Positions 1-24,152 are shown, numbered from the stretch's first letter. The stretch is 64,000 bases of DNA from Candidatus Latescibacterota bacterium (GCA_965243025.1 CBDETY010000003.1:2944001-3008000), one strand, 5' to 3'. Numbers and translations are program-made. Notes: generated by a model from the sequence alone, not told the origin.

Positions 1-788
1 AAGATGATGTTCTGGACCGGTTCACCGGAAAACTGGAACTCGAGCACGGGGCTCTTGTTGTCCAGAACTTCCGTGACGACGTCGAAGTCCAGGACGCGAA
101 CCCCCTTCCCGGGACCGGTGTGCAGCTTGTGCCATATCTCCCTCTCCCGGAAGCCGATCTTCAGGGGATCTCCGTCGTTGATCCCCACGGTGTAAGTGGG
201 GATAAATCGGTCGTCTTCGGTGCCCGGCGGCGGAAACACGCGGATCGAGTGGAGGGGAAAAACACCTGGAAGGGTCACCCAGATGTGTTTGCACCTTCCA
301 ATCAGATCGGTATCAGTCCTTACTGATTCAGTATCCGCATCCCCGCAGTAAGGCGCCCCCTGAGAGCCGACATAAGGAAACTGACCGACGTAGTAGGTTT
401 CAGAATCACCGTCCCACATCGTCTCCATGGCATCTTCCTGCTGGAATCCGTTGTATCCCGCCCATCCTTTTATCAGGCCACCTGCGGCCTTGACCTGCGG
501 CGTGAGGTTCAACGTGTTGGGCAGGAATTGGGGGCGTATGGAATCGGGGTGGATTTCGACGAGGTCGGAGCCGCCCAAGGGCAGCTCGTCCAGCTCATCC
601 CAGGAGAGCTGAATAAACTGCATGGAGTCAGCAGGGGCGCCCACAGAGTCGGTATCCGGCGGAAGAAGGCTCTCTCCGCCGATCCGGTAGATGGTCAGGG
701 CCGAACTCTGCGACAGGCCCATCAAGGCGGTTGTGCAGCAGCAGAGAAAAACCAGTCTGGTCGACCTCGAACTCAAAGCGACTCCCAT
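1..788 (-). CDS. Secreted discoidin-like/FlgD-Ig family protein, 5' part only (runs off the left edge); paralogue of 11111 and 13136
   Basis: Absent from the ORF track. Manual translation from ATG 788 (AGGAG RBS upstream) is open to the window edge: MGVALSSRSTRLVFLCCCTTALMGLSQSSALTIYRIGGESL...VLEFQFSGEPVQNII, colinear with 13136..15103. Confidence 0.9.
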   Translation of the reverse strand, partial: MGVALSSRSTRLVFLCCCTTALMGLSQSSALTIYRIGGESLLPPDTDSVGAPADSMQFIQLSWDELDELPLGGSDLVEIHPDSIRPQFLPNTLNLTPQVKAAGGLIKGWAGYNGFQQEDAMETMWDGDSETYYVGQFPYVGSQGAPYCGDADTESVRTDTDLIGRCKHIWVTLPGVFPLHSIRVFPPPGTEDDRFIPTYTVGINDGDPLKIGFREREIWHKLHTGPGKGVRVLDFDVVTEVLDNKSPVLEFQFSGEPVQNII

Positions 789-894: not shown

Positions 895-3567
895 TCAGTA
901 GGCGACGGCGACGGTTCGAATGACCTCGCGCCCGTCGAGGCCGGCCCCCGCCTCGTCCGCCTCCACCTGAAAGCGCAGGGCATACACCCCCGGGGGCACC
1001 CGCACCCCGCCGGCGTCGGCTCCGTCCCACCTCATCTCGTAGGTGCCCGCGCTCACCTCTTCCCGCTGGCGCAGGGTGCGCACCAACCGGCCGCTCAGGT
1101 CGAAGACGCTGACCGCCACCGCACGACTGGCCCCCACCAGCACCACCGCGAAGCGGAACACCGCCTCGTCGTTGACCCCGTCCCCGTTCGGCGTGAACGC
1201 AGCGGGAAGCTCGAACGCCGTCATCAGCTGCCGGCGCTCCTGCACCCCCACCACCAGCAGGCGGTTGCTGTCGACCCCCTCGACGGCATTGCCCCCGTCC
1301 ACCTGCTGCCAGACCGTCTCCCCCTCGCCGGAAAACCGGGCAAACGCCTGCACCTGCCCGCCAATCGAATACAACCGCCCCGTGAAGTCGAGGCGAAGCA
1401 CTTCCAGGTCGGCGTCCGGCTCGATGAGGGGAAAGGAAACCAGCAGACTGTCCCCGGCCGGCCCGAGCTGGACGGCGTCGGTCAGGACAAAGGAGGACGG
1501 ATCGCCGGCCGCTGTCAGCTCCTGCTCCGGTCCGGCCAGCAGGCGGGTGAAGCCCTCCAGGCTGAGGCCGTCCGGAGCGGTCAGCAGGAGCCCGTCGAAC
1601 CCGGGGTTGGCGCGCCCGAAGTCGGGACGCACGTACAGGGAAAACGGCCGCTCGACGGCCAGGGACTCGACCCGAGCCGGAGTCACCTCCCCCAGAAAGC
1701 GCTGCGCCAGCGGCTCGGCGTACTTCAGGCGCACGCTGCGCAGGGTGGCGGCCGCCTCGGGGCTGTCCGAGACCAGGGTGGCGCGCATCTGCACGAAGTT
1801 GCGCGGCGACGGCGAGGTGATGCGGCTGCCCGACACCGGATACGGCTCGCTCCAGGCGCTGGCGTCGCTGCCCATGACTTCCTCGATGACGATGTCCCCT
1901 CTGAGAGTGTTGGGGGGAAGCTCGACCTTCGGGTTGGGCTCCTTGAGCTTGTCGTACCTCTCCGCCGTCACCTCCTCGCCGAGGCCGTTGAAATAATGGT
2001 TGACCTCCGACTTCGTGCTGCTGGTGCGGGTCTGCAGTAAGACGCGGGTTCCGGGCGGGGTGTCGGCGTCCCACTCGATGGCGGTCAGCGTGCGCGTGCC
2101 GCGCAGGTCGATGAGGGGGGACTCGAGGCTCACCCGCGGTTGATACCCCTCCCCGAACATGCGCAGCTCCGTGAGCGGATACGCTTGGGCCCTTGAAACC
2201 ACCCACTCGTCGTCGTTTACGTACAGGAGCCGGAAGAAGCGAGCCCGTACGGGGGCGAAGGAATGGCGCTCGGACTGCACCCCTGATCGGTGGATTTCGC
2301 TCAGAACACGGGCGACGACAGGCACCGTTCTGATGGGCTGCTGGATGCGTTTGGCCGTGACCCATTCGAGGCTGCCGTCGACTCTCCGGGAGCCGTCGGA
2401 GAAATCGAGCTGGAAATCCCCGAAGGTGAAATTCTGGCCGCCTCCCCTGAGATTGTTGACCATCTGCAGATTGCTGATCCAGAAAAAGGACCCCAGGTCT
2501 GCGATCAATTCCCGTTCAGCCCTGTAAGGTTTGACCAGAAACGAGCTGGAGATGTCGCCGTCGAACATATCCCCCGGATTTGAAGTGGACGGCGGCTGAG
2601 TGGTAATACTGCCGCCCCTGTCGAGGAGACGGCGCGCAAGGTCCTCCCCTTCCTCCCAGATCTCGAGCTCGGCCAGACGAGGCCGTTCGCGGCGGTAATA
2701 GCGGATCGGGCCCTTCCGATCCTCCGGCAGGCGGCGGTAGTTTTCTTCCGGCACGACCAGCAGCTGGCCATCACCCAGGCGCTTCACGTAATCCACCGCG
2801 CCACGGTCTTCATCGGGCAACTCTTCGTACGTGGCGGCGTCGATCTCCTCGGCGCGGCCAAGGCGCGAGCCGCGCACCACCAGCTGCAGGTAACGGGCGA
2901 CGTTCTTGCGGGCATCGGCGGGCGCGTCCGAAAGGTCGATCTCGAACAGACGCTGGGTGGTGTTGGGCGTCAACAGCTGCAGGACGGGCAGGTATTCGAG
3001 GGATTCCCCGGCGACGGCCGAGTTCGGTTTCTGCCCGTCCGAGGTCAGCACGTCGAACAGGTAAAGGGGATCCCCTCCCACATCCTCGTCGACGAAGCGC
3101 AGCGCAATCCGGTTGAGCACGACCAGACGGCCCAGATCGAGGGTGAACCACCACTGAGTGGCGAGTTCGGCCCCCTTTGGAAGGAGGGCTGGCTCCCAGT
3201 AGGTGGAAGGATCCCCATCCAGGATGGAAGGCAGACCCTCGCGATTCGAATCCCCGTCGACTGCGTCGAGCAGAGTAATCTCCTCCGGGGCCTTGTCGGC
3301 GAGGTGATCGGGCGGCTGTTCGCGGAGGAAGTCGACAATGCTGTCCACCGCGTTCGTCTCCAGGGTCCAGCGCCGGGGTCCTATGCCGACCGCGTCGATC
3401 TCGAGGGTACCAACCGGAAACAGCCAGTCTGCCCAGTGCTCCCGCGTATCGGCGACGATCTGGCGCCCGGAGCGGTCGAGGCGATACCCGGCCTGCCCCC
3501 AGAGCTCGGAGCCGGTGAGTACCAGTACGGCCGCAAGGGCGATCACTGGGTTCGAATTCCTCTGCAT
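895..3567 (-). CDS. Secreted protein with two discoidin/F5-8C-like domains and a C-terminal FlgD-Ig/CHU_C-like domain
   Basis: Signal peptide from ATG 3567 (MQRNSNPVIALAAVLVL). Discoidin-like motifs DGD..TYW, TLDLG, ELEIW/ELRMF. C-terminal FTPNGDGVND...FDLSGRLVR...WDG...PPGVY. Paralogue of 15115..17814. Confidence 0.85.
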   Translation of the reverse strand: MQRNSNPVIALAAVLVLTGSELWGQAGYRLDRSGRQIVADTREHWADWLFPVGTLEIDAVGIGPRRWTLETNAVDSIVDFLREQPPDHLADKAPEEITLLDAVDGDSNREGLPSILDGDPSTYWEPALLPKGAELATQWWFTLDLGRLVVLNRIALRFVDEDVGGDPLYLFDVLTSDGQKPNSAVAGESLEYLPVLQLLTPNTTQRLFEIDLSDAPADARKNVARYLQLVVRGSRLGRAEEIDAATYEELPDEDRGAVDYVKRLGDGQLLVVPEENYRRLPEDRKGPIRYYRRERPRLAELEIWEEGEDLARRLLDRGGSITTQPPSTSNPGDMFDGDISSSFLVKPYRAERELIADLGSFFWISNLQMVNNLRGGGQNFTFGDFQLDFSDGSRRVDGSLEWVTAKRIQQPIRTVPVVARVLSEIHRSGVQSERHSFAPVRARFFRLLYVNDDEWVVSRAQAYPLTELRMFGEGYQPRVSLESPLIDLRGTRTLTAIEWDADTPPGTRVLLQTRTSSTKSEVNHYFNGLGEEVTAERYDKLKEPNPKVELPPNTLRGDIVIEEVMGSDASAWSEPYPVSGSRITSPSPRNFVQMRATLVSDSPEAAATLRSVRLKYAEPLAQRFLGEVTPARVESLAVERPFSLYVRPDFGRANPGFDGLLLTAPDGLSLEGFTRLLAGPEQELTAAGDPSSFVLTDAVQLGPAGDSLLVSFPLIEPDADLEVLRLDFTGRLYSIGGQVQAFARFSGEGETVWQQVDGGNAVEGVDSNRLLVVGVQERRQLMTAFELPAAFTPNGDGVNDEAVFRFAVVLVGASRAVAVSVFDLSGRLVRTLRQREEVSAGTYEMRWDGADAGGVRVPPGVYALRFQVEADEAGAGLDGREVIRTVAVAY
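897..1877 (-). repeat. Inverted repeat copy A (~981 bp), partner of 16832..17812
   Basis: Reverse complement matches 16832..17812. I saw one synonymous mismatch (1804 vs 16905). Shadow ORFs in other frames match too (1043..1996 vs 16713..17666). Confidence 0.9.
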
Positions 3568-3887
3568 AGTCGCCAAGGAGCCAGCAATGCGACCCGGATG
3601 CCCGTGAAGCGATCGCGGGTGTCCACGTCGCGTCACAGCAGGTTCGTCATCCCGCTTCGACCAGAGGTGGGTCGGGATACTTCCGGGATGGCTTGTCGAG
3701 GTATAAACAGGAATTTACAGCGCTGAAGGGCCCGTCTGCAATCAAAAATCGCCCCGATGGATGCAGGGTTCTCAACCAGGTCCCGTGCACTGATTGGAGA
3801 TTGACTTTCTCGTCGTGGGTGGGGGAGTTGCAAGGGAATGGGGTCCAAGGTTGGCAATGCGGCTTGGAGGCGAGCAAGAGCGCGCTC

Positions 3888-3953: not shown

Positions 3954-4877
3954 TTACCTCTGCATCGACGCCTTGATTACCCCCCAGCTCCCAGCCTTCA
4001 CAGCCGTATCTTCGTCTATCGGCATGACCAGGAAATCGGTGAAGAAGTCGGCGTCGCCGAAGTCTTCGGTAAAGGTCCCCAAGTTCCAACGCGAACAGCA
4101 TTCTGTGCCCTCTGCCCCACAATCGCAGTCGGCATAAGTGTCGTAGACACAGGTGGCAATCCCGACGATCTGACCTTCTTCGATGTCGTGGATGTTGTCG
4201 AAGCTGTAGTCGGGATCGTCCCACTTGAAGTCGTTGAAGCCCGGCAGGTAAAACTCGGCGACCAAGGTAAACTCCTCTTGGGAAAGGGGCTCCCCGGTGT
4301 AGCTGTAGGAGGCATCCATGAAGCGGGGATCCTCATACCAGTCGGCTGCCGTCTGCCAATTCCATGCCCAGTCGCCCGGCCCTTGCTGGGCACCGTCAGA
4401 GAAGAACAGGTGGTAGGGCTGGGCCCCACGGGACTTGGCGCGCTTCTGCTCCTCCTCTGTCTGACCCTCTTCGAACCAGAAGGAGCCCGCGCTGTGGTCG
4501 GCGTCGATCTTCGGTTCGAGGTCGGACCAGCCTGTCCATGAATCATCGAACCGTTCGTATGCCCAGTAGAACCGATCGTCCGCCGCATTGGCGGTTGGGA
4601 CAAAGCGGAACGACAGGCGCGCGGGGTCGACTCCCGTGGTAACGGGAGAGTTGCCCGGCTCGGTCTGGTACAGCGTACCCTCCTCAACACTGTCGTTGTC
4701 GAACCAGTACTCCTCGGGCACCACGTCCCACTCGGACAGGTTGGTGTCCAGGATCGGCATCCCCTCCGGCCACTGCCACAGGAAATGCAGCACACCCTCC
4801 GGTTCGTGCGCGTCGGGTGCGTCGGCGCTTGCGAACAGCAAGCACCCAACCGCGAAGGTTGTTGCGAGCTTTTTCAC
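3954..4877 (-). CDS. Secreted acidic CBM9/DOMON-like protein with a C-terminal TAV..SWGxIK tail
   Basis: GTG 4877 follows a GGAG RBS. Signal peptide VKKLATTFAVGCLLFASA. P.LD..LSEW motif, IDADHSAG, tail DTAVKAGSWGVIKASMQR. The fold assignment is tentative. Confidence 0.75.
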   Translation of the reverse strand: MKKLATTFAVGCLLFASADAPDAHEPEGVLHFLWQWPEGMPILDTNLSEWDVVPEEYWFDNDSVEEGTLYQTEPGNSPVTTGVDPARLSFRFVPTANAADDRFYWAYERFDDSWTGWSDLEPKIDADHSAGSFWFEEGQTEEEQKRAKSRGAQPYHLFFSDGAQQGPGDWAWNWQTAADWYEDPRFMDASYSYTGEPLSQEEFTLVAEFYLPGFNDFKWDDPDYSFDNIHDIEEGQIVGIATCVYDTYADCDCGAEGTECCSRWNLGTFTEDFGDADFFTDFLVMPIDEDTAVKAGSWGVIKASMQR

Positions 4878-5264
4878 GACTCCCCCCTTCTTTGGATTAA
4901 GGAAAGTATCCATGATGGATGGCAATGGAGAACCTTCTCCGGAACTGCCCGAATGTTCACATGGACGGGTCCAGTGGGTTTTTTTCGAAAAGACGCTACT
5001 TCATTTGATACGGTAGCCAATTCGCCAAGCGGGCACAAGCTTTTTTTCGATGGTCTCCCCCTCCTCCCTATTCCGTCTCCGGCTTTGGTTGCCCCCACGT
5101 GCGTGTCAGGGGGTTTGGGCAATTTCCCAAACGCGCGCACGGATTTCCGCGGACACCCTATTCCCGGAACTTTGGTTTGGCTATATTGCCGGATCCAAGG
5201 GCAGCAAGCCTGCTGGTCGCACACAGCCAAGCGCCGGAAACCCTGCTGTCAAGCCACGTTCGCG

Positions 5265-11065: not shown

Positions 11066-11110
11066 AGTCCTTTACCGGGGTGCGCCAAGAACCCTGTCTA
11101 CCCAGTTCCC

Positions 11111-13093
11111 ATGATATCCCACTGGTTGTGCCTGGCAGTGAATCTGCCTGTGGGATTGGCCTGTGCAGTGGAGACCGGTGCCCTGACGATCTATCGGATC
11201 GGCGGGGAGAACATGCCGCCTCCTGATCCAGACTCCCTGGATGCGCCGTCCGAGTCAGTGCAGTTCGTTCAGCTGTCGTGGGACGAGCTGGACGAGCCGC
11301 CCTTCGGCCGCTCTCATCTCGTCGACATCCGCCCGGATTCCATCCGCCCCGACTTCGTGGAGAACCGGAACCTGATGCCGGAGGTCGAAGACAGGGGAGG
11401 CCTCATCCGCGCCCGTTCCAATGGACGGGGGGCCTACGGCTATGACAAGGCCATGACCGTCATTTACGACAGGAACCCCAAGACCGCCTATCGCGGCCAG
11501 CCGCCGATGGCCCGCTGGGCAAGCGACATTGCGATTGCCGGAGCCCCGTACTGCGTTGGAGAACCGAATCTCTGCAAGTACGTGTGGGTTTCCCTGGCCG
11601 GCGCCTACCCCCTCCAGCGCATCAGCATCTATCCCTCCCCTGGAAACGAGGATCGCCGCTTCATCCCGACCTACACCCTGGGGATCAGCGACGGCGATCC
11701 CCTGAAAGCCGGTACCCGCGAACGGTCGATCGCCGATGAGTCCGACCTCCCTGTCGATTTCCTCGCCGATTTCGACCTGGTGGCTGAAGTTCTTGAAAAC
11801 AGGGAACCGGTGCTCGAGTTCGAATTCGTCGGCGAGCCGGTACAGGAGGTCCTCTTCATCGCCCCGGTAGGGGATTGGGAGATTGCGGAGTTCGAGATTT
11901 ACGCCGACGGTTTCGCGGTGAACTCCGACTACGCCTCCAGTGTGATCGATCTCGGGCAAGCCGCCACCCTGGGGCCCTTCACCTGGTCGGGCGCACTCCA
12001 CCCCGGAGCCCGCCTCGACCTGAGGGTGCGCAGCGGCGGCACACCCGATCCCCACATCTACTACCGCAACACCTTCCGCGGGGCCGAGCGCAGCCGCTAC
12101 AATGCCGAGGGAAGCCCCCTCGTACGAAGCACCTACTTCAACCTGGAGGCGGGGGAGCAGGGCGGCATCGTTCCCGATGTCGAAAACTGGTCTCCCTGGA
12201 GTTCGCCCCTGAAATTCAGCGCCCGGGCAGCCGACTTCGCCACCCCACGGCCCCGACGCTACCTGCAGTTCAGGGCCGACTTCCATTCCGGCGGACGCCT
12301 CGATTACCTCCAGTTCCCGGTCACTCAGCCCCCCGTGGCGACCCGTGCCGTGGCCGAGATCGAACCGGCTCGCGTCCACGCCGGACAGACCAGCCGATTC
12401 CGCTATCTCCTCCTCCCCGATATCCGCGTCGGCGATCAGGGCTTCGACCGCATCGAGATTGCAGCGCCTTCCCGCATCGACCGCGTCGAATCGGTCGCCA
12501 TCGATGGCGTCTCCCTCGAACCGGCGCAGTGGCAGGCGGACATCGAAACCGGCGCCTTCGTCGTCCACATTCCCAGAAGAAACGAACGCGACACCCAGGA
12601 CCTGATCGAAATCGTCTTCCACGCCCGCATCTTCGACTACGGCACGGTGTTCGACGGCCGCATCTACGACAGCACCCGCCCCTGGGAAGTGCCGCAGGCC
12701 CTGGAGCCGGGGGATGCCGCCTTTCTGGCCGACAGCAACTCCCTTACCGTCGAGCTCATCGAGGTCGGACAGCAGGTGCTGGGCGCCATCGAACTCTCCG
12801 GCTCCTCGTTCACCCCCAACGGCGACGGCGTCAACGACCAGCTCGACATCCGCTTCGACCTCGTCAACCTCTCGGCCCCCGTGCCGGTAAACCTGGAGGT
12901 GTTCGATCTGGCCGGGACACGCCGCACCCAACGGCCCCTGGCGCAGCGGGGCAGCGGACCCCATTCCGTCTTCTGGGACGGCAGGGACGACAGCGGCCGG
13001 ATCCTGCCTCCCGGCCTCTACCTCCTCAGACTCGACGTCGATACCGACAACCATACCTTCACCGCCAGCCGCGTCGTCTCCCTGGCGTATTGA
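11111..13093 (+). CDS. Secreted discoidin-like/FlgD-Ig domain protein
   Basis: Signal-like N-terminus, ALTIYRIGGE, C-terminal FTPNGDGVND...WDGRDD...PPGLY...VSLAY. Confidence 0.88.
   Translation: MISHWLCLAVNLPVGLACAVETGALTIYRIGGENMPPPDPDSLDAPSESVQFVQLSWDELDEPPFGRSHLVDIRPDSIRPDFVENRNLMPEVEDRGGLIRARSNGRGAYGYDKAMTVIYDRNPKTAYRGQPPMARWASDIAIAGAPYCVGEPNLCKYVWVSLAGAYPLQRISIYPSPGNEDRRFIPTYTLGISDGDPLKAGTRERSIADESDLPVDFLADFDLVAEVLENREPVLEFEFVGEPVQEVLFIAPVGDWEIAEFEIYADGFAVNSDYASSVIDLGQAATLGPFTWSGALHPGARLDLRVRSGGTPDPHIYYRNTFRGAERSRYNAEGSPLVRSTYFNLEAGEQGGIVPDVENWSPWSSPLKFSARAADFATPRPRRYLQFRADFHSGGRLDYLQFPVTQPPVATRAVAEIEPARVHAGQTSRFRYLLLPDIRVGDQGFDRIEIAAPSRIDRVESVAIDGVSLEPAQWQADIETGAFVVHIPRRNERDTQDLIEIVFHARIFDYGTVFDGRIYDSTRPWEVPQALEPGDAAFLADSNSLTVELIEVGQQVLGAIELSGSSFTPNGDGVNDQLDIRFDLVNLSAPVPVNLEVFDLAGTRRTQRPLAQRGSGPHSVFWDGRDDSGRILPPGLYLLRLDVDTDNHTFTASRVVSLAY
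11258..11352 (+). repeat. 95-bp identical block shared with 13292..13386
   Basis: GTGCAGTTCGTTCAGCTG...CATCCGCCCCGA is identical in both genes, with diverged flanks. Confidence 0.85.
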
Positions 13094-13095
13094 CG
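11885..13095 (+). repeat. Direct repeat copy 1 (1211 bp, constant 3' region)
   Basis: Matches 13895..15105 at offset 2010. The protein and the shadow-frame translations are identical. Confidence 0.92.
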
Positions 13096-13135
13096 AGGCA
13101 GCGATGAGGCGTGGTGTTTCCCCCCAGATCTCGTA

Positions 13136-15103
13136 GTGATGAGATCCCTGCCCATTCGACGGATGGTACTGAGTTTGTGCGCCACGGCCTGGATGGGGTT
13201 GTCCCAGAGCGCCGCCCTGACGATTTACCGGATCGGCGGAGAAAGCTTACCCCCTCCTGAACCCGACTCCCTGAATGCGCCGCCCGAGTCCGTGCAGTTC
13301 GTTCAGCTGTCGTGGGACGAGCTGGACGAGCCGCCCTTCGGCCGCTCTCATCTCGTCGACATCCGCCCGGATTCCATCCGCCCCGAGTTCCTGCCGGACA
13401 CCTTGAACCTCACGCCGCACATCAGGAACGCAGGTGGAATAATCAATGGGTGGGCGGGATACGGACGGGGGTTCCAGCAGGAACCCGAGATGGCGACGAT
13501 GTGGGACGAGGACTTCGAGACCTACTACGTCGGCCAGGCCCCCTTCATCGGGGATCGCGGCACACCCTATTGCGGCAACACCCGCGACACGGTTTGCAAG
13601 TACGTCTGGGTGACCCTGTCGGGGGTATTTCCACTCCGCTCGGTGCGGGTGTTCCCGCCAACGGGAACCGAGGAGGACAGGCACATCACCACCTACACCC
13701 TCGGTATCAACGACGGGGATCCCCTGAAAATCGGTTTTCGCGAGAGGGAGATACGGTACGAGGGGTACATCAGTGTGGACTTCGACGTCGTCACCGAAGT
13801 CCTCGAGAATACGGACGGCGTGCTCGAGTTCGAGTTTTCGGGCGAGCCGGTACAGAACATCGTCTTCATCGCACAGGTGGGACGCTGGCGAATCGCGGAG
13901 TTCGAGATTTACGCCGACGGTTTCGCGGTGAACTCCGACTACGCCTCCAGTGTGATCGATCTCGGGCAAGCCGCCACCCTGGGGCCCTTCACCTGGTCGG
14001 GCGCACTCCACCCCGGAGCCCGCCTCGACCTGAGGGTGCGCAGCGGCGGCACACCCGATCCCCACATCTACTACCGCAACACCTTCCGCGGGGCCGAGCG
14101 CAGCCGCTACAATGCCGAGGGAAGCCCCCTCGTACGAAGCACCTACTTCAACCTGGAGGCGGGGGAGCAGGGCGGCATCGTTCCCGATGTCGAAAACTGG
14201 TCTCCCTGGAGTTCGCCCCTGAAATTCAGCGCCCGGGCAGCCGACTTCGCCACCCCACGGCCCCGACGCTACCTGCAGTTCAGGGCCGACTTCCATTCCG
14301 GCGGACGCCTCGATTACCTCCAGTTCCCGGTCACTCAGCCCCCCGTGGCGACCCGTGCCGTGGCCGAGATCGAACCGGCTCGCGTCCACGCCGGACAGAC
14401 CAGCCGATTCCGCTATCTCCTCCTCCCCGATATCCGCGTCGGCGATCAGGGCTTCGACCGCATCGAGATTGCAGCGCCTTCCCGCATCGACCGCGTCGAA
14501 TCGGTCGCCATCGATGGCGTCTCCCTCGAACCGGCGCAGTGGCAGGCGGACATCGAAACCGGCGCCTTCGTCGTCCACATTCCCAGAAGAAACGAACGCG
14601 ACACCCAGGACCTGATCGAAATCGTCTTCCACGCCCGCATCTTCGACTACGGCACGGTGTTCGACGGCCGCATCTACGACAGCACCCGCCCCTGGGAAGT
14701 GCCGCAGGCCCTGGAGCCGGGGGATGCCGCCTTTCTGGCCGACAGCAACTCCCTTACCGTCGAGCTCATCGAGGTCGGACAGCAGGTGCTGGGCGCCATC
14801 GAACTCTCCGGCTCCTCGTTCACCCCCAACGGCGACGGCGTCAACGACCAGCTCGACATCCGCTTCGACCTCGTCAACCTCTCGGCCCCCGTGCCGGTAA
14901 ACCTGGAGGTGTTCGATCTGGCCGGGACACGCCGCACCCAACGGCCCCTGGCGCAGCGGGGCAGCGGACCCCATTCCGTCTTCTGGGACGGCAGGGACGA
15001 CAGCGGCCGGATCCTGCCTCCCGGCCTCTACCTCCTCAGACTCGACGTCGATACCGACAACCATACCTTCACCGCCAGCCGCGTCGTCTCCCTGGCGTAT
15101 TGA
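13136..15103 (+). CDS. Secreted discoidin-like/FlgD-Ig domain protein, tandem paralogue
   Basis: Signal peptide, same architecture as 11111, identical C-terminal ~400 aa. Confidence 0.88.
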   Translation: MMRSLPIRRMVLSLCATAWMGLSQSAALTIYRIGGESLPPPEPDSLNAPPESVQFVQLSWDELDEPPFGRSHLVDIRPDSIRPEFLPDTLNLTPHIRNAGGIINGWAGYGRGFQQEPEMATMWDEDFETYYVGQAPFIGDRGTPYCGNTRDTVCKYVWVTLSGVFPLRSVRVFPPTGTEEDRHITTYTLGINDGDPLKIGFREREIRYEGYISVDFDVVTEVLENTDGVLEFEFSGEPVQNIVFIAQVGRWRIAEFEIYADGFAVNSDYASSVIDLGQAATLGPFTWSGALHPGARLDLRVRSGGTPDPHIYYRNTFRGAERSRYNAEGSPLVRSTYFNLEAGEQGGIVPDVENWSPWSSPLKFSARAADFATPRPRRYLQFRADFHSGGRLDYLQFPVTQPPVATRAVAEIEPARVHAGQTSRFRYLLLPDIRVGDQGFDRIEIAAPSRIDRVESVAIDGVSLEPAQWQADIETGAFVVHIPRRNERDTQDLIEIVFHARIFDYGTVFDGRIYDSTRPWEVPQALEPGDAAFLADSNSLTVELIEVGQQVLGAIELSGSSFTPNGDGVNDQLDIRFDLVNLSAPVPVNLEVFDLAGTRRTQRPLAQRGSGPHSVFWDGRDDSGRILPPGLYLLRLDVDTDNHTFTASRVVSLAY

Positions 15104-15105
15104 CG
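13895..15105 (+). repeat. Direct repeat copy 2 (1211 bp)
   Basis: Starts GCGGAGTTCGAGATTTACGCC and ends GCGTATTGACG, as in copy 1. Confidence 0.92.
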
Positions 15106-15114
15106 CCCGCAACC

Positions 15115-17814
15115 GTGCAGAAGAACTTCTACGCCGCCATCGTTTTCGCCCTGGCACCCTTGCTGGTCCCCCCAGGTTCTGAGCTGTGGGGCCAGACAGG
15201 GTACCGGCTTGACCGACCGGCGCGCCAGATCGTCGCCGATACCCCGGAGCACTGGGATCACTGGGTGTTTCCAGTGGAAACAGTGGAGGTACTGGCGGCC
15301 GGTGTGCAACCGAGGCGCTGGACTATGGACTCGAACGCCGCAGACGGCATTGTCGACTTCCTGCGGGAACAGCCTCCCGACCACCTGACCGACAAGCCGC
15401 CAGAAGAGATTACCCTGCTCGACGCTGTCGGCGCGGGTTCGAATCGCGAGGGCGTTCTCAAGGTCCTGGACCGGGACCCGGCCACCTACTGGGAACCTGC
15501 CCCGCTGCCGGAGGGCGCTGATATTCCCTCCCAATGGTGGTTCACCCTCGATCTGGGCCGCGTGGTCGTCCTCAACCGGATCGCGTTGCGCTTCGTCGAC
15601 GAAGAAATGGGCTCGCCGTTCCTGCTGTTCGACGTTCTCACCTCGGACGGTCAGAAACCCCTCGCCGCCGTTGCCGGGGAATCCCTCGAATTCCTGCCCG
15701 TCCTGCAGCTGGTGAAACCCAACACCACCCGGCGTCTGTTCGAAATCGACTTCTCGGACGCGCCAGGCGATGCCCGCGAGAACGTCGCCCGTTACCTGCA
15801 GGTGGTGGTGCGCGGCTCGCGCCTGGACCGCGGCGAAGAGGTCGAGGCCGGCGAATACGAGAGGCTGCCCGAAGAAGAGCGGGGTGCGGTGGAATACATG
15901 AAGCGGCGCAGCGATGGGGGGGAAGTGGCGGTGCCCGAAGAAAACTACCGCAGCCTACCCGAGGACCGGCGGGGACCCATCCGCTACTACCTCCGCGAGC
16001 GCCCTCGCCTGGCCGAGCTCGAGGTCCGGGCGGAAGGTGAAGACCTGGCACGGCGGCTCCTCGACAGGGGTGGCAGCGTCGCCCTCCACCCGGCGGTCGA
16101 ATCCCGCCCGAACAACATGCTCGACGGCGACATTTCCACCTACCTGGGCCTCTACTACACTATCCGACCGGATCTCGAAGTTCTCGCGCCAAATATCGTG
16201 ACGGACCTGGGGGCATTCTTCTGGATCAACAGCCTGCAGATCATCATGAATCTCAGGGGCTCCGGCCACAGTTTCACCTTTGGAGATTTCCAGCTCGACT
16301 TCTCCGACGGCTCCCGGCAGGTCGACGGCAGCCTCCAGTGGGTCACGGCCAAACGGATCGTGCAGGAGCCGGTGGCCAAAGCCAGGGAAACCGTCGTTCT
16401 CGGTCTCCGATTGCACCAATCCCAGATGGAGGCCGAGCGCCATTCCTTCGCACCCGTACGGGCTCGCTACTTCCGGCTGGTGTACGAGAAGGCCGACGAT
16501 GACAGGGTGACGCTGTACCAAGGGATCCACCCGGTATCGGAGTTGCGCATGTTCGGGGAGGGGTATCAACCGCGGGTGAGCCTCGAGTCCCCTCTCATCG
16601 ACCCCCGCGGCACGCGCACGCTGACCGCCATCGAGTGGGACGCCGACACCCCGCCCGGAACTCGCGTCTTACTGCAGACCCGCACCAGCAGCACGAAGTC
16701 GGAAGTGACCCACTATTTCGACCGCCTCGGCAAGGAGGTGACGGCGGAGAGGTACGACAAGCTCAAGGAGCCCAACCCGAAGGTCAAAATCCCCGACAAC
16801 CTCCTGAAAGGGGACATCGTCATCGAGGAGATCATGGGCAGCGACGCCAGCGCCTGGAGCGAGCCGTATCCGGTGTCGGGCAGCCGCATCACCTCGCCGT
16901 CGCCACGCAACTTCGTGCAGATGCGCGCCACCCTGGTCTCGGACAGCCCCGAGGCGGCCGCCACCCTGCGCAGCGTGCGCCTGAAGTACGCCGAGCCGCT
17001 GGCGCAGCGCTTTCTGGGGGAGGTGACTCCGGCTCGGGTCGAGTCCCTGGCCGTCGAGCGGCCGTTTTCCCTGTACGTGCGTCCCGACTTCGGGCGCGCC
17101 AACCCCGGGTTCGACGGGCTCCTGCTGACCGCTCCGGACGGCCTCAGCCTGGAGGGCTTCACCCGCCTGCTGGCCGGACCGGAGCAGGAGCTGACAGCGG
17201 CCGGCGATCCGTCCTCCTTTGTCCTGACCGACGCCGTCCAGCTCGGGCCGGCCGGGGACAGTCTGCTGGTTTCCTTTCCCCTCATCGAGCCGGACGCCGA
17301 CCTGGAAGTGCTTCGCCTCGACTTCACGGGGCGGTTGTATTCGATTGGCGGGCAGGTGCAGGCGTTTGCCCGGTTTTCCGGCGAGGGGGAGACGGTCTGG
17401 CAGCAGGTGGACGGGGGCAATGCCGTCGAGGGGGTCGACAGCAACCGCCTGCTGGTGGTGGGGGTGCAGGAGCGCCGGCAGCTGATGACGGCGTTCGAGC
17501 TTCCCGCTGCGTTCACGCCGAACGGGGACGGGGTCAACGACGAGGCGGTGTTCCGCTTCGCGGTGGTGCTGGTGGGGGCCAGTCGTGCGGTGGCGGTCAG
17601 CGTCTTCGACCTGAGCGGCCGGTTGGTGCGCACCCTGCGCCAGCGGGAAGAGGTGAGCGCGGGCACCTACGAGATGAGGTGGGACGGAGCCGACGCCGGC
17701 GGGGTGCGGGTGCCCCCGGGGGTGTATGCCCTGCGCTTTCAGGTGGAGGCGGACGAGGCGGGGGCCGGCCTCGACGGGCGCGAGGTCATTCGAACCGTCG
17801 CCGTCGCCTACTAG
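15115..17814 (+). CDS. Secreted double-discoidin/FlgD-Ig protein, paralogue of 895..3567
   Basis: GTG 15115 gives VQKNFYAAIVFALAPLL..GSELWGQTGYRLDR, which aligns with the N-terminus of the 895..3567 protein. The 1500-aa track ORF is an upstream frame extension. Confidence 0.87.
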   Translation: MQKNFYAAIVFALAPLLVPPGSELWGQTGYRLDRPARQIVADTPEHWDHWVFPVETVEVLAAGVQPRRWTMDSNAADGIVDFLREQPPDHLTDKPPEEITLLDAVGAGSNREGVLKVLDRDPATYWEPAPLPEGADIPSQWWFTLDLGRVVVLNRIALRFVDEEMGSPFLLFDVLTSDGQKPLAAVAGESLEFLPVLQLVKPNTTRRLFEIDFSDAPGDARENVARYLQVVVRGSRLDRGEEVEAGEYERLPEEERGAVEYMKRRSDGGEVAVPEENYRSLPEDRRGPIRYYLRERPRLAELEVRAEGEDLARRLLDRGGSVALHPAVESRPNNMLDGDISTYLGLYYTIRPDLEVLAPNIVTDLGAFFWINSLQIIMNLRGSGHSFTFGDFQLDFSDGSRQVDGSLQWVTAKRIVQEPVAKARETVVLGLRLHQSQMEAERHSFAPVRARYFRLVYEKADDDRVTLYQGIHPVSELRMFGEGYQPRVSLESPLIDPRGTRTLTAIEWDADTPPGTRVLLQTRTSSTKSEVTHYFDRLGKEVTAERYDKLKEPNPKVKIPDNLLKGDIVIEEIMGSDASAWSEPYPVSGSRITSPSPRNFVQMRATLVSDSPEAAATLRSVRLKYAEPLAQRFLGEVTPARVESLAVERPFSLYVRPDFGRANPGFDGLLLTAPDGLSLEGFTRLLAGPEQELTAAGDPSSFVLTDAVQLGPAGDSLLVSFPLIEPDADLEVLRLDFTGRLYSIGGQVQAFARFSGEGETVWQQVDGGNAVEGVDSNRLLVVGVQERRQLMTAFELPAAFTPNGDGVNDEAVFRFAVVLVGASRAVAVSVFDLSGRLVRTLRQREEVSAGTYEMRWDGADAGGVRVPPGVYALRFQVEADEAGAGLDGREVIRTVAVAY
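16832..17812 (+). repeat. Inverted repeat copy B (~981 bp)
   Basis: Reverse complement of 897..1877. Confidence 0.9.
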
Positions 17815-17825
17815 GAGACCGAGCC

Positions 17826-20069
17826 TTGGAATTCCATTTTTCATCGATTGGCCGCCTTCCCCTGTTTTTTTTCGGGCTGGCCGCCGTGGCTTGGGCTGAC
17901 GATCTCCCCCCCAGGGTCATCGGGGAAGGGGGGGTGCCGTGGGATGGCGGCGGCGGCGGAACCATCCCGGCCCTGTGGAAGTTGTCCGAAGAGGGGGTAG
18001 AAGAGACGAACACGCCCGGCAACGTGGTCGACTTCGACGTGGCCGACTACCCCAACTGGCTGTTTCCGCAGCAGATCGACAGTACCAGGAGCATTCTGAT
18101 CGGACTCGGATCCAGGGAGCGCGGGGGGAGCGTCCACACCCCAACGTTCACTTTCAACAGCCTCACACCCGAGTTTCCGCTCATGTTCGACGACGATGCG
18201 GAGACGGCCTTCGCAATGCGCGCGGACCGGCCAGGGGAGGCAGCCGGGGGGCGTGGGTTGCTCATCCAGTTCGACTTGGGGAACGTTTTCAGCGTCAACC
18301 GCATCCGGTTCTTCCCACGGAACGCCGATCCCGCCTATCCCGCCCCCGCTTACCCATTCGAAAAGGACTTCATAAAGGCGTACGAGATCTTGACCAACGA
18401 CGGCTCCCCTGAAGCGCTCCGCTTCGGTATCCTCGACTTCACGCGCCTGGTCCGAGTGGAGCAGAGCGAGGAGGCCGTCGTCGATATCCGGATCGAACCG
18501 CAGTTCATGCGGCACCTGCGCTTCAAATCGCTGAGTGATCTCGACTTCGAGATCGCTGAATTCCAGGTCTTCTCTCTCGGTTTCGTGCCGCAGGCGACTT
18601 ACGTCTCCAACGTCTTCGATTTTGGTGACCCGGCTTTGCTGGGCAATCTGCGCTGGGTTCAGGAGAAGTTCGGAGACGCCCGTCAGTCACAGGTTCAGAT
18701 CCGTACGCGAACCGGACTCGACCGGCAACCCCTCGAATTCACCAGGGAGGGCGTCCAGAGCACCGGCAGGGTCAGGAATGTTCGCGTGGTTCTCGGAGTG
18801 AGGGAAGAGGAGATCCTCATCGATGCGGCGTGGAAGAAAGGGGAGAACCTGGAGGACGAGGAGTTGCGACGCATCGTGGATTCCGTCCTCGACAACCCCG
18901 AAATCGACGGGCAGGAAGCCCTGCTCCACTACCAGCTGCTGCCTCCGGAGACGAGGGAACTCCTCGCCCTGAATCAGGAGGATTACTTCGACCTGGATGA
19001 GGAGGAGCGCACAGGAATAGGAGACGATCTGACCAGTTGGAGCGCCTGGTCTCCCCCGTACGCCCTGGAGGGGAAGGTGGTCGAGGCGGATCTCCTGAAC
19101 CCCGAACTGGGAACTCCCCTCACATCGCCTGACGTCCGGAGATTTTTCCAGTTCATGGTGGAATTCACCAGCGAGGCGTTTGACGCCGCCACGGGGTTGG
19201 GAGCGCTGGCGTTCGATGTGGCTGTCCCCAGCTACGCCGACTCGCTGGTCGGGGAAATCGCACCCAGGGCCGCTGCCCTTGCCGAAGACACGGAGTTCAC
19301 CTACGCGGTGCTCGTCAAGATTGGTTCCGGGAGCGGGTTCGACCGACTGGAGATCGACACGCCCTTGAGGACAAGCGCCGTCGGACTGGTCGAAATCATC
19401 AGAACTGACGGGAGCGCCCTGACGGCGGACTTCACCGGCACTGATCTCGAGACCCTCCCTGTGACTGACAACAGCATTTCCATCACTGGGATCGGAAGCA
19501 ATCAGTTGGCCCTCTCCTTCCCCGAAATCAACGGGGACAATACCCTGCTGAGAGTGCAGTTCAGGAACGCCGTGCTTCGGTTCGCGACCCGCTTCGGCAG
19601 TCATGCGTTCAAAGGGGAAAGCCGCATCGGGCAGCGGGTGTTGCCCGGCAATGCGACTGATTTGCGCAGCGTGGGCATCGACGATGCCGACCTCGTTTCG
19701 ATCGGCACCCTGAAGGAGGGCAACCTGTCGGTTTCGGTTCCTATATCGAAAGACCTCCTGGTAAACGTGGCCGCCGATCCGCCGGTCTTCACCCCGAACG
19801 GGGATGGCGTCAACGACGAGTCAGTCATCGGATATGACGTCACCAACATTGGGAAGCCCACAGATGTGCAGGTCGGGATTTACGATCTCAGCGGCCGTCT
19901 CGTTCGGCAGTTCGATGATTTGCGGACGAGCGGCCGTTACGGCAGCGGCTGGGACGGTCGCGACGGGTCGCGAAATCTGGTTCCCCCAGGCAATTACATC
20001 TACACCGTTTCCATCGACGCCAACAAGGGCAACCTCGAACGCTCCGGGGTGGTGAGGGTGGCGTATTAG
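17826..20069 (+). CDS. Secreted discoidin-like/FlgD-Ig domain protein (third subfamily)
   Basis: TTG 17826 follows an AGGAG that overlaps the previous stop. Signal peptide ...LAAVAWA|DD. FDLG..FSVNRIRFFP, IAEFQVF, FTPNGDGVND...VRVAY. Confidence 0.85.
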   Translation: MEFHFSSIGRLPLFFFGLAAVAWADDLPPRVIGEGGVPWDGGGGGTIPALWKLSEEGVEETNTPGNVVDFDVADYPNWLFPQQIDSTRSILIGLGSRERGGSVHTPTFTFNSLTPEFPLMFDDDAETAFAMRADRPGEAAGGRGLLIQFDLGNVFSVNRIRFFPRNADPAYPAPAYPFEKDFIKAYEILTNDGSPEALRFGILDFTRLVRVEQSEEAVVDIRIEPQFMRHLRFKSLSDLDFEIAEFQVFSLGFVPQATYVSNVFDFGDPALLGNLRWVQEKFGDARQSQVQIRTRTGLDRQPLEFTREGVQSTGRVRNVRVVLGVREEEILIDAAWKKGENLEDEELRRIVDSVLDNPEIDGQEALLHYQLLPPETRELLALNQEDYFDLDEEERTGIGDDLTSWSAWSPPYALEGKVVEADLLNPELGTPLTSPDVRRFFQFMVEFTSEAFDAATGLGALAFDVAVPSYADSLVGEIAPRAAALAEDTEFTYAVLVKIGSGSGFDRLEIDTPLRTSAVGLVEIIRTDGSALTADFTGTDLETLPVTDNSISITGIGSNQLALSFPEINGDNTLLRVQFRNAVLRFATRFGSHAFKGESRIGQRVLPGNATDLRSVGIDDADLVSIGTLKEGNLSVSVPISKDLLVNVAADPPVFTPNGDGVNDESVIGYDVTNIGKPTDVQVGIYDLSGRLVRQFDDLRTSGRYGSGWDGRDGSRNLVPPGNYIYTVSIDANKGNLERSGVVRVAY

Positions 20070-20135
20070 CCCCCAATGTCCGGGTTGGCGCATTGAGCTT
20101 GATGAACGCAGTGTAACGGGTGTTAGCGAGTTTCA

Positions 20136-22979: not shown

Positions 22980-23018
22980 GGGCTCACCGAAGCAGTCATA
23001 CCGCGAAACCCCCCGGCT

Positions 23019-24152
23019 TTACTGAATCAACTCCGTCGTTTCCGACTCGATTACCTCCATGTCGAGATCGACGCCCAGTCCCGGACCCTCCGGCATCTCG
23101 ACATAGCCGTCCGACACCTTCAGGGGGTTTCTTACCGCAGGATTCGTGTAGGCCTCGAAAGGGGGGTGCACCTCGAGGAGCACGGTGTTCTCGATGGCGC
23201 CGTTTACGTGGAGGGATGAGAATCCCCACATGGGGGTGGTGGCCGACACGTGAATGGACACACCGAAGCTGTAGGCCAGTTGCGCCAGCTTGAGCATCTC
23301 CGTGATGCCGCCCATCTCGACATAAGGCTTGATGCCGTCGGCAACTCCCAGGGCCAGCATCTGGGCGTAGCTGTGGAGGTGGTGGGGGAAATACTCACCG
23401 GCTACGATGGGAATCTCCAGGGTGTCGCGGAGTTTTTTCAGGCCGAGGAAATCGTGGTCCCTCAGCGGCTCCTCGAACCAGGTGAAGTCGTACTCCTCAA
23501 GAGCGCGGCCGACCCGGACCGCCTCTTTGTGCTCGTAATAGCCAACGGCATCGTGCATCAGGTGAAAGTCGGGACCGACTGCGTCGCGCAGCTTGCCGGC
23601 CAGCTCGATCATGAACTTCGGGCCAGCGTAGCAATGGTCCTTGCTGCCGAGGTACCCGTCCTCCTTGACCTGCAGGGCAAACTCCAGAAAATGGTCCATC
23701 GACTTGCCCTCGGGGCCCATCGTGCCCGACTGTGTGCGGTAGGCCGGCACCTTGTCACGGCAGGCTCCCAGAAGGCGCCAGACCGGCATTCCGTGTCGCT
23801 TGCCCGCGATGTCCCAGAGGGCAACGTCGATGGAACCCCGCAATTTCTTCGGGGGCCACAACAGGCGTTCCCGCATCAGGTTGTCGTGCCACATCCTTTC
23901 GTGGGCCAAAGCGTCGCGGCCGATCAGGTAGTCGCGGAAGGGACCGGTAATTACGTGCGCCATCTCCGGGTCGATCAGATTGCACCACCCTTCGATACCG
24001 TCTTCGGTTATGATGCGGAGGAGACCGTCCCTCTTCCCCACGCCCTTGTCGAAACCGAGCATGTGCACCTTCAGGTCGACGATGGGAAGCGGGTCGTAGC
24101 CTTCGTACTCGACCGGCTGCCAGGGGCCGGCGCTGCGGTTGTCGGTTACCAT
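23019..24152 (-). CDS. Mandelate racemase/muconate lactonizing (enolase superfamily) enzyme
   Basis: DVALWDIAGK, KDH, MHD, WFEEP, AGE, PGLGVD. Start moved to MVTDN at 24152. Confidence 0.88.
   Translation of the reverse strand: MVTDNRSAGPWQPVEYEGYDPLPIVDLKVHMLGFDKGVGKRDGLLRIITEDGIEGWCNLIDPEMAHVITGPFRDYLIGRDALAHERMWHDNLMRERLLWPPKKLRGSIDVALWDIAGKRHGMPVWRLLGACRDKVPAYRTQSGTMGPEGKSMDHFLEFALQVKEDGYLGSKDHCYAGPKFMIELAGKLRDAVGPDFHLMHDAVGYYEHKEAVRVGRALEEYDFTWFEEPLRDHDFLGLKKLRDTLEIPIVAGEYFPHHLHSYAQMLALGVADGIKPYVEMGGITEMLKLAQLAYSFGVSIHVSATTPMWGFSSLHVNGAIENTVLLEVHPPFEAYTNPAVRNPLKVSDGYVEMPEGPGLGVDLDMEVIESETTELIQ

Follow-up and report, generated by a model that had tools for sequence, protein, structure and literature searches.

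Probable concerted evolution of the tails of two tandem lectin-like genes with distinct, conserved heads in a sponge-associated bacterium

Introduction

The tufA/tufB genes and the rRNA operons are classical duplicates kept near-identical by gene conversion; strong purifying selection acts on them, and their homogenisation spans the entire gene. In the tandem gene pair described here, designated A and B, homogenisation is confined to one module, and this module outpaces the unconverted part of the genes between strains. Concerted evolution by gene conversion is a known process, found here in a little-studied bacterial group.

A comparable pattern is described for the Helicobacter pylori genes babA/babB and homA/homB, whose 3′ segments are alike within a strain and whose 5′ or middle ligand-binding parts are alike between strains; PMC3960876, which summarises Pride & Blaser (2002), ascribes it to gene conversion within the genome that depends on RecA. 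In both cases a 3′ part is homogenised within the strain, and the proteins are surface proteins that bind glycans in a bacterium living with a host, a function that is predicted for A and B. The differences are several: babA and babB are distant loci, whereas A and B are adjacent and in tandem, and a second pair, E/E′, is inverted, about 13 kb apart; the Bab proteins are Hop-family barrels, to which A and B, with a CBM32-like head and a FlgD-Ig/CHU_C-type C-terminal domain, are unrelated; the organism is an uncultured, sponge-associated bacterium of Gemmatimonadota type, known only from metagenomes; and A/B gave no sign of phase variation or of a chimeric exchange of heads.

In Porphyromonas gingivalis, PMC5266723 reports adhesin domain rearrangement and allelic exchange for the T9SS cargo proteins Kgp, RgpA and HagA. 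The likeness to that system lies in the reshuffling of C-terminal non-catalytic modules of (here predicted) T9SS proteins by homologous recombination, but that paper stresses exchange between strains and domain variation, whereas the present locus shows tail homogenisation within the genome and conserved heads.

Genes, exact repeats and diverged heads

The window is the whole stretch of DNA that was analysed, 64,000 nucleotides of a Candidatus Latescibacterota bacterium (GCA_965243025.1 CBDETY010000003.1:2944001-3008000), and positions are counted from its first letter. The genes concerned are the following.

11111..13093, plus strand: gene A, 660 aa, defined by ORF, translation, profile and fold matches; hydrophobic N-terminus, conserved N segment, CBM32/discoidin-like head, middle module of ~300 aa and FlgD-Ig/CHU_C-type C-terminal domain
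13096..13135, plus strand: A–B spacer of 40 bp, unique in the genome, which proves the tandem junction
13136..15103, plus strand: gene B, 655 aa counted from the GTG at 13136; an alternative start is the ATG at 13139, and the database form of 646 aa begins further in
15115..17814, plus strand: gene E, 899 aa, a longer paralogue immediately 3′ of B
17841..20069, plus strand: gene F, which also belongs to the family and shares its C-terminal domain; the start codon is uncertain
895..3636, minus strand: gene E′, an ORF of 913 aa (database form 883 aa)
1..788, minus strand: 5′ part of paralogue C, which runs off the window start; outside the A/B pair, C is the closest relative of B

Gene B has the architecture of gene A, with a different head and signal peptide; among A and B and the paralogues C and D, it is A whose signal peptide and head stand apart. 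A promoter and terminator scan of 4300–23200 found sites no more numerous than in shuffled sequences.

A sequence-only reading of the window had pointed to a 1211-bp identical region in A and B. Exact comparison at an offset of 2010 gave 0 mismatches over this length, and a whole-window k-mer scan independently agrees; the next-longest identical run at that offset (searched in 11000–13200) is 15 bp. The repeat makes up the 3′ two-thirds of both paralogues, and its limits are where that reading had placed them, with a start at the codons I|AEFEIYADGF and an end 2 bp past the TGA stop in both genes. At 83% identity, the value for the unconverted flank with the least divergence, the chance of 1211 consecutive matches is ~1e-96. 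A further exact repeat of 95 bp, missed in the earlier reading, adjoins the 5′ end of the diverged head.

11885..13095, plus strand: 1211-bp exact direct repeat, copy 1; last strand of the head fold, whole tail, stop codon and 2 bp
13895..15105, plus strand: 1211-bp exact direct repeat, copy 2
11258..11352, plus strand: 95-bp exact direct repeat, copy 1
13292..13386, plus strand: 95-bp exact direct repeat, copy 2
11353..11884, plus strand: head-specific segment of A, an unconverted island; 59% nucleotide identity to B, dS 1.30, dN 0.46
13387..13894, plus strand: head-specific segment of B; 72–73% nucleotide identity to the heads of C and D, closer than to A

The heavy divergence claimed for the domain preceding the repeat is evident, with 59% identity over 167 aligned codons and indels. 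Judged by this nucleotide identity and a dS of ~1.3, the head-coding parts of A and B are old. Between the tails of A and B, dS is 0 over 402 codons, and the distance from this shared tail to the paralogues C and D amounts to a dS of 0.69–0.77; a tail dS of 0 beside the head value bears out the preference of the sequence-only reading for conversion over simple duplication. The tail identity is not due to purifying selection alone, since in the window genome the synonymous sites are identical too. The 95-bp repeat is a second, short conversion tract, with a dS of 0 for A against B and ~0.5 against C and D; the 74 bp to its left are 83% identical between A and B (dS 0.48).

Evidence from the assembly and public runs

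Identical 1.2-kb tandem repeats are a classic site of collapse, and contigs are able to lose rare variants, which lends some weight to the notion that the tails truly differ and were homogenised by the assembler or in polishing. Against it, the assembly (a 6.78-Mb contig) keeps one-base differences between IS copies of 1.57 kb (99.94% identity), and repeats of 91–99% identity survive in it, including many tandem duplicates kept separate at 91–95%. Logan (De Bruijn) contigs were taken from four public runs of four studies, here X1, X5, X6 and X7. They end at the repeat borders in all four runs, and the unique spacer is bridged by single contigs in each of them (13066–13321 in X1, X5 and X6; 13066–13313 in X7). 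The comparison of depth over the repeat and over the heads, proposed with the sequence-only reading, puts the shared part at roughly twice the depth of either head: the shared 954-bp piece has a depth of 29.8 in X1, with 12.4 and 15.6 for the heads, and of 5.29 in X6, with 2.0 and 2.2 for the heads, so that the shared tract is close to the sum of the two heads in both runs; in X5 the values are 7.2, 5.9 and 4.0. Variant letters in this piece number 0 in X1, 0 in X5 and 1 in X6, counts to be read with the tendency of Logan contigs to drop rare variants, by which a few copy-specific differences could stay hidden. In X1 and X6, the 95-bp repeat forms a contig of its own with roughly twofold depth. 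Collapse is also unable to produce strain-specific tail variants common to both copies, as described below. The 1211-bp repeat is not an assembly artefact, and true tail differences erased by the assembler are extremely improbable.

Two irregular observations were considered and set aside. In X7, head A is without cover at a likeness of at least 90%, and a tail contig with five differences has about twice the depth of head B; this was rejected as a sign of a different head or of a concerted change, the depths being low (3–11) and those of the flanks inconsistent. In X5, one contig joins 13291 to 11258 and so places head A behind the 5′ end of B; it coincides with gaps of low coverage at the 95-bp repeat, where its neighbours stop short of the usual k-1 overlap, and it was rejected as a recombinant and is read as a low-coverage graph artefact.

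Predicted domains and secretion

The description of the head as discoidin-like in the sequence-only reading is upheld by structure modelling. The model of A residues 20–271 (pLDDT 87.5, pTM 0.82) has the beta-sandwich jelly-roll fold of the CBM32 family and best matches solved CBM32, or F5/8-type-C, modules: galactose oxidase accounts for one of the top 11 Foldseek matches, and modules of the CBM32 or chitosan-binding (CBM32-type) kind for the other ten; the best CBM32 matches have E values of 2e-7 to 5e-6 and TM scores of 0.68–0.76 on the target. The predicted fold is most like that of the CBM32 modules of Clostridium perfringens NanJ and GH89 (2v72, 4a41, 4a42), chains that also match weakly in sequence by the family profile (E 0.0015–0.026); the head differs from them in a sequence identity of 14–18% and in an extra N-terminal beta segment. 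The identical tract opens with the bases that encode the last strand of the CBM32-like fold. PF00754 did not match A or B at E ≤ 0.01; it matched 7 of 52 relatives at this threshold (best 25.4 bits, cut-off 28.2), and many E-type relatives carry a precomputed PF00754 assignment. Sugar binding by the CBM32/discoidin-like heads is a predicted function.

The C-terminal domain, residues 566–648 in A, matches PF13860 FlgD_ig with 29.4 bits in A and 29.2 in B (cut-off 27), and PF13585 CHU_C with 24.9 and 24.7 bits, under the cut-off of 27; with E ≤ 0.01 as the threshold, 51 of 52 family members have a CHU_C match. TIGR04131 and TIGR04183 gave no match in A or B and sub-threshold matches in the paralogues E, F and P0079. 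The same genome encodes T9SS machinery, namely two PorU sortases (621 and 615 bits, cut-off 420), SprA (470 bits, cut-off 200) and, adjoining one PorU gene, a PorV-like gene with 95.6 bits, under the cut-off of 250. Hydrophobic N-termini are visible in both translations. Type IX secretion of A and B, with the C-terminal domain as a putative sorting domain, is probable.

Comparison between assemblies and species

The comparison set consists of four assemblies, of which the three beyond that of the window are represented by proteins alone, and dS values refer to the window genome. Searches for the nucleotide sequence of the other strains gave at best 36% with genome contigs, 37% with metagenome contigs and 52% with same-genus genomes. 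Within each of the four assemblies, in three of which we infer the pairing of A with B from equal length of the longest contig, the two tails differ at 0 of 402 positions; between assemblies, tails differ at 1, 4, 5 and 34–36 of 402. At all 37 tail columns that are variable across the paired assemblies, the A and B copies from any one assembly have the same residue. The heads of A and B differ at 86–88 of 167 positions in every assembly, and those of one type differ between assemblies at 0–11 of 177 positions (A) and 0–5 of 169 (B). In the head tree, the A and B types are split by a branch of 1.14 (SH-aLRT 100) and each groups with its own orthologue from another species, whereas in the tail tree all eight A and B sequences form one clade (support 100), paired by assembly. 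The boundary between shared and distinct parts falls at the identical residue in all four assemblies; in the N segment, patchy exchanges between strains run in both directions.

The tails are more alike within than between genomes, the flanking heads keep their orthologous similarity between genomes and, in the window genome, identity extends to the synonymous sites of all 402 codons, which together is the pattern of concerted evolution. That A and B are an old pair follows from the head orthologues in another species, whose A-like and B-like tails are 75% identical. In control sets of tandem family members from five other genomes, the tails were only 64–70% identical in all five. The tails of A and B most probably evolve in concert by recurrent intragenomic gene conversion, with their distinct heads conserved. 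The recent conversion proposed in the sequence-only reading was right in kind but incomplete: within-genome identity together with between-genome differences of the tails in all four assemblies makes the conversion recurrent, not merely recent.

A single recent conversion or partial duplication, limited to the window genome and with no ongoing process, would suffice for that genome taken alone, where one event is all that the data need, and short-read assemblies elsewhere could have collapsed a few copy-specific SNPs. However, E and E′ keep two and seven differences in two of those assemblies. A single event also predicts that A–B differences within a strain are about as large as differences between strains, but the A and B tails are the same in all four assemblies and differ by up to 36 of 402 positions between them, and the graded differences within strains for E/E′ (0, 0, 2 and 7 of 302) fit intermittent events; this explanation is quite unlikely.

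The sequence-only reading had also allowed for domain swapping, which is not supported. Here it would mean that the whole gene was recently duplicated in tandem and that a foreign or paralogous cassette then took the place of one head; the island bracketed by exact flanks of 95 and 1211 bp has the geometry of a cassette exchange, and the signal peptide and head of A deviate among A–D. Nevertheless, both head types are conserved in the four assemblies, each with an orthologue in another species; the genome holds no close donor for either head (best 68–77% over part of the length); and the 74-bp stretch to the left of the 95-bp tract is old too, as are the regions of the signal peptides. Such a swap is very unlikely.

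The label of a constant region proved misleading for the tail. Tails of A–D are 86–91% identical between strains against 93–99% for their heads, the tail being the faster part in all four; head identity by gene is 94–100% (A), 97–100% (B), 99% (C) and 93% (D). In the window lineage, 24 of 36 tail changes lead to a state shared with fewer of 10 related family proteins than the alternative, and 19 of these 24 are shared with none of the 10. Tail distances to C, D and the A-like and B-like tails of another species are star-like and give no donor direction. GC-biased conversion left no signal, with a GC3 of 0.843 for the A/B tail, 0.833 for D and 0.774 for C, and weak-to-strong changes are not in excess (29 against 46). 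P0086, an A-type fragment, was considered as a carrier of a divergent tail and rejected; its last ~38 residues are unalignable to any relative, apparently out of frame, and the remainder is 90–93% identical.

Expansion and contraction of the array in steps of 2010 bp could conceivably occur; each of the four assemblies holds one A and one B.

The second pair and the gene family

The window contains a second pair with the A/B pattern, E and E′, which share an exact inverted repeat.

16906–17812 (3′ end of E) = 897–1803 (3′ end of E′): 907-bp exact inverted repeat

It stops just before the stop codons, the last two bases of which differ (TAG vs TGA). The C-terminal 302 aa of E and E′, with the graded differences within the four assemblies given above, differ at 3–24 positions between assemblies, and the N-terminal parts differ at 130–145 of ~450 positions within each assembly. 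The family has 87 members in the genome, and 22 clusters hold 59 of these. When the 87 loci were compared all against all by blastn, tracts of at least 98% identity in otherwise diverged genes turned up only in A/B and E/E′; the comparison also gave two evenly diverged recent duplicates that are not mosaics. Uncharacterised proteins of ~1000 aa, here called U, form a paralogous family with 42–45 tblastn matches per query, and the listed copies adjoin other clusters of lectin-like genes. The accessible portions of the literature on Gemmatimonadota/Latescibacteria sponge symbionts, discoidin and type IX secretion yielded no paper on the 87-member family.

A family of this size, heads with conserved flanks, and surface or secreted lectin-like proteins of host-associated bacteria, which are typical targets, call to mind programmed variation, that is, cassette switching, antigenic variation or a DGR-like system, with the shared tail as the recombination handle. 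Yet no part of these proteins is better conserved between strains than the heads, which is the reverse of what cassette diversification would give; close strains show no hypervariable target segment; just two pairs among the 87 loci have tracts of at least 98%; and the sole contig joining a B 5′ end to an A head is best read as the graph artefact in X5. Programmed variation is therefore highly improbable, and recurrent conversion of the tails is the reading followed below.

Proposed mechanism

A and B are old tandem paralogues in a very large family of probably secreted proteins of a Gemmatimonadota-type, sponge-associated bacterium, and recurrent non-reciprocal homologous recombination between the two most probably keeps the 3′ 1.2 kb identical. 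The homogenised part begins with the strand that completes the head and goes on through the tail module to the putative C-terminal sorting domain. Conversion tracts would extend 3′ to the end of homology, 2 bp beyond the stop codon, and 5′ to the head island, whose identity of ~59% would offer no substrate for strand exchange; the short 95-bp tract would meet the island from the opposite side. The outcome is tails that evolve in concert and two distinct heads that evolve independently and are conserved. The mechanism is presumably of the RecA type, and it may be homology, rather than selection to keep the heads distinct, that limits the tracts.

Biological significance

The homogenised tails could also be a selected, co-evolving unit and not a passive by-product of homology, a tentative and rather unlikely reading. 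If it is true, conversion would pass an adaptive change in the tail to both genes simultaneously and could keep the tails matched to a fast-changing partner, such as the U proteins, the attachment machinery of the T9SS or some factor of the host or of a phage, and two fixed glycan specificities would be kept while the tails change; the exact 95-bp and 1.2-kb flanks would then make each head an exchangeable cassette in an 87-gene repertoire.

For annotation and assembly, the two pairs serve as a warning that identical tracts of 0.9–1.2 kb in diverged paralogues are real here and will break short-read assemblies at predictable places. The most probable reading, recurrent conversion of the tails, provides a clean natural case of module-limited concerted evolution, in four strains and two gene pairs of an uncultured, sponge-associated lineage. 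Fast tails combined with fixed lectin-like heads are contrary to the usual expectation for surface adhesins. The analysis also draws attention to a very large two-family system, consisting of 87 lectin-like genes bearing the C-terminal domain and the large uncharacterised U proteins, through which sponge symbionts probably make contact with glycans of the host or of food.

Organisation and divergence of the tandem pair

The tandem paralogues A and B encode probably secreted, lectin-like proteins with a CBM32/discoidin-like N-terminal head and a tail comprising the last 402 aa, including a middle module of roughly 300 aa; the genes are separated by a unique spacer of 40 bp.

11111–13093: gene A, ORF of 660 aa
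13136–15103: gene B, ORF of 655 aa, in tandem with A

Self-comparison of the window at an offset of 2010 revealed 1211 bp of uninterrupted identity (11885–13095 = 13895–15105), the next-longest identical run at this offset being 15 bp. The sequence-only reading had claimed a 1211-bp identity of the tandem genes, and it was borne out by the offset self-comparison, pairwise alignment and an independent k-mer scan; the latter two also revealed a further direct repeat without mismatches, 95 bp in length (11258–11352 = 13292–13386).

Comparison of genes A and B, from 5' to 3'
Signal-peptide regions: barely alignable, 50% nucleotide identity over 20 codons
Next 74 bp: 83% identical
Short repeat, 95 bp: no mismatches
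Head island (the diverged segment between the two exact repeats): 59% identity with indels; length 532 bp (A) and 508 bp (B)
Long repeat, 1211 bp: no mismatches, stopping 2 bp beyond the stop codon

A codon alignment included A, B and the two paralogues nearest to them in this genome: C, which extends across the window start, and D, which lies 68 kb upstream. In the A/B comparison, the head island had a dS of 1.30 and a dN of 0.46, the 26 codons preceding the 95-bp tract had a dS of 0.48 and the tail had a dS of 0 over 402 codons; the dS of the A/B tail versus C and D was 0.69–0.77. Synonymous differences cannot be removed by purifying selection, and the chance of 1211 successive matches at the 83% background identity is about 1e-96. 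There was no sign of overall positive selection on the heads (omega 0.2–0.35); the outliers among A–D are the head and the signal peptide of A, and no close donor for the head of either A or B was found in the genome.

Evidence for the repeat in the assembly and public reads

The genome comprises 6.8 Mb in three contigs, with the window lying within the 6.78-Mb contig. Ten or so copies of a 1.57-kb insertion sequence were retained in the assembly despite single-base differences, as were many tandem or dispersed duplicates of 91–99% identity; the assembly therefore does not homogenise repeats. The stretch is present in twenty public runs from ten studies, several labelled as sponge metagenome; the metatranscriptome run X20 contained 15% of the sampled words. 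Logan contigs of four runs, each from a different study, were compared with the locus. In all four, contigs ended at the edges of both the 95-bp and the 1211-bp repeat, and single contigs bridged the unique A–B spacer.

Depth in three public runs (shared 954-bp piece; head A; head B)
X1: 29.8; 12.4; 15.6
X6: 5.29; 2.0; 2.2
X5: 7.2; 5.9; 4.0

Other letters in the shared piece numbered zero in X1, zero in X5 and one in X6, although rare variants can be dropped by contigs, so that the Logan data alone would still allow a handful of copy-specific SNPs. A polishing artefact, which had been named beforehand as the outcome that would speak against the identity, was not seen in the Logan contigs of the four runs.

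Other repeats were also noted in the genome. Contig G000:C3 contains, at 589,7xx–591,2xx and nine further places among others, about ten copies of a 1.57-kb element and about ten of a 1.26-kb element, insertion-sequence-like and 99.8–100% identical, as well as an exact repeat of 6006 bp with copies at 666351 and 1271160. The 14,617-bp contig G000:C1 matches itself at 100% at offsets of 4988 and 9976 bp, and thus consists of a 4988-bp unit repeated head to tail about three times; it probably represents a small circular element that the assembly rendered as a concatemer.

Recurrent homogenisation of the tails

A-type and B-type proteins of other assemblies were collected by protein search and cluster look-ups, and A was paired with B where the contigs carrying them were equal in length (own genome, 241,214, 176,297 and 464,719 bp). 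Within each of these four assemblies, the A and B tails had 0 differences in 402 positions at the protein level, whereas tails of different assemblies differed at 1, 4, 5 and 34–36 of the 402 positions; A and B of one assembly agreed in all 37 variable tail columns. The heads of A and B differed at 86–88 of 167 positions in every assembly, and between assemblies at 0–11 of 177 positions for A and 0–5 of 169 for B. In the head tree, a branch of 1.14 (SH-aLRT 100) divides the A-types and an A-like protein from another species from a group made up of the B-types, a B-like protein from that other species, C and D; in the tail tree, A and B, eight sequences in all, fall into a single clade (100), in which they pair by assembly.

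Had conversion happened only once, in an ancestor, divergence between A and B inside a strain should roughly equal that between strains; tails that are identical within assemblies and differ between them speak against this. Conversion of the A/B tails must therefore have occurred repeatedly, in several lineages. In each of the four assemblies, the A/B boundary falls at one and the same residue; in the short N segment, patches of A-type and B-type residues differ from strain to strain, which fits several short tracts in both directions. As controls, A-like and B-like tails of another species, with matching contig sizes, are 75% identical, and tails of five tandem sets of the protein family, found in five further genomes within this taxonomic family, are only 64–70% identical.

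The tail had been described as a constant region, and this is true only within a genome; between strains the tails change more than the heads. Between the two most distant strains, the head and tail identities are, respectively, 94% and 91% for A, 97% and 91% for B, 99% and 91% for C, and 93% and 86% for D, the tail being the more changed part in all four paralogues.

A second mosaic pair

An all-against-all blastn search of the 87 family loci of this genome revealed, besides A/B, only one further mosaic, formed by the longer genes E and E'.

15115–17814: gene E, directly 3' of B
895–3636, minus strand: gene E'
16906–17812 (plus) = 897–1803 (minus): exact inverted repeat of 907 bp, forming the 3' ends of both genes

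The repeat stops just short of the stop codons, of which the last two bases differ; it is preceded by a 360-bp zone of 87–96% identity, and the 5' halves are 60–88% identical. In the four assemblies used for A/B, the C-terminal 302 residues of E and E' showed 0, 7, 2 and 0 differences within an assembly and 3–24 between assemblies, and the N-terminal parts differed at 130–145 of about 450 positions within each assembly. The non-zero values indicate that identity is not forced by these assemblies and that homogenisation is intermittent. A crossover between the 907-bp copies would invert a segment of about 15 kb, containing A, B and the large uncharacterised genes U1 and U2, and would leave both E and E' intact.

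Another family member (39305–41389, minus strand) is duplicated 3.6 Mb away (G000:C3:6629005–6631137), with an even identity of 95.5% across 2055 bp; unlike the A/B mosaic, this pair arose by ordinary duplication in recent times.

Domain composition and genomic neighbourhood

Pfam searches with A and B matched the C-terminal domain only, FlgD_ig being just over the cut-off and the CHU_C type IX secretion signal just under it; CHU_C matches 51 of 52 relatives (E ≤ 0.01). The genome encodes two PorU sortases and SprA, over curated cut-offs, and a PorV-like gene under the cut-off, which makes T9SS export of A/B-type proteins plausible. About 40 bp at 12809–12850 (= 14819–14860) code for the FTPNGDGVND motif of the C-terminal domain; this stretch is near-identical in DNA among many otherwise distant paralogues (31–33-bp matches, 93–100%), and it has a depth of 125–245 in the four runs and breaks the de Bruijn graph at this point.

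The structure of A residues 20–271 was modelled confidently from a 52-sequence alignment (pLDDT 87.5, pTM 0.82). Among solved structures, it best matched CBM32 modules from Clostridium perfringens enzymes, which bind galactose, and related modules that bind chitosan (E 2e-7 to 5e-6), and the family profile matched the same chains weakly at the sequence level; Pfam F5/8 type C is matched, below its cut-off, by 7 of the 52 relatives and carried by many E-type relatives. The identical tract opens with the bases that code for the last strand of the predicted head fold (A residues ~260–268); the borders of conversion and of the domain therefore essentially coincide.

Relatives are present in MAGs labelled Gemmatimonadota and Latescibacterota. 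In this genome, 87 loci cover at least 300 of 403 tail residues, and 59 of them lie in 22 clusters. Three large genes lie in the same neighbourhood.

4785–8090, plus strand: large gene, 1101 aa
8087–11065, plus strand: large gene, 992 aa
20136–22979, plus strand: large gene, 947 aa

None of the three has a Pfam or NCBIfam match; they are mutually paralogous and represent a second uncharacterised family, with 42–45 tblastn matches genome-wide. The paralogues among the best matches listed adjoin other clusters of the lectin-like family, and the arrangement looks like a repeated two-family cluster. Atlas matches of the large genes were confined to Gemmatimonadota/Latescibacterota clusters, all of them uncharacterised, and gave a weak lead to a TonB-receptor-like barrel. 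Downstream of the cluster, 23019–26923 contains an enolase-superfamily (MR/MLE) gene and a gene for an FG-GAP/ASPIC-UnbV repeat protein.

Possible mechanism and precedents

The simplest account is RecA-type gene conversion between nearby paralogues, with tracts extending until homology fails; the 3' limit would then lie 2 bp past the stop codon in A/B or at the stop codon in E/E', and the 5' limit would be set by the head island. An identical pair of tails would be an excellent substrate, making homogeneity self-sustaining, and heads of about 59% identity would be unable to pair; selection for two distinct heads may be an added barrier.

The same pattern as in A/B is described for the 3' segments of Helicobacter pylori babA/babB and homA/homB (PMC3960876), and in Porphyromonas gingivalis the C-terminal modules of T9SS cargo are known to recombine with one another (PMC5266723). 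The literature search found no paper on the A/B protein family. It is well supported that A and B represent a known process in a new lineage and a new protein family, and not a new kind of system; the finding would be weightier if the tails were a selected, co-evolving unit, or if the heads were exchangeable cassettes.
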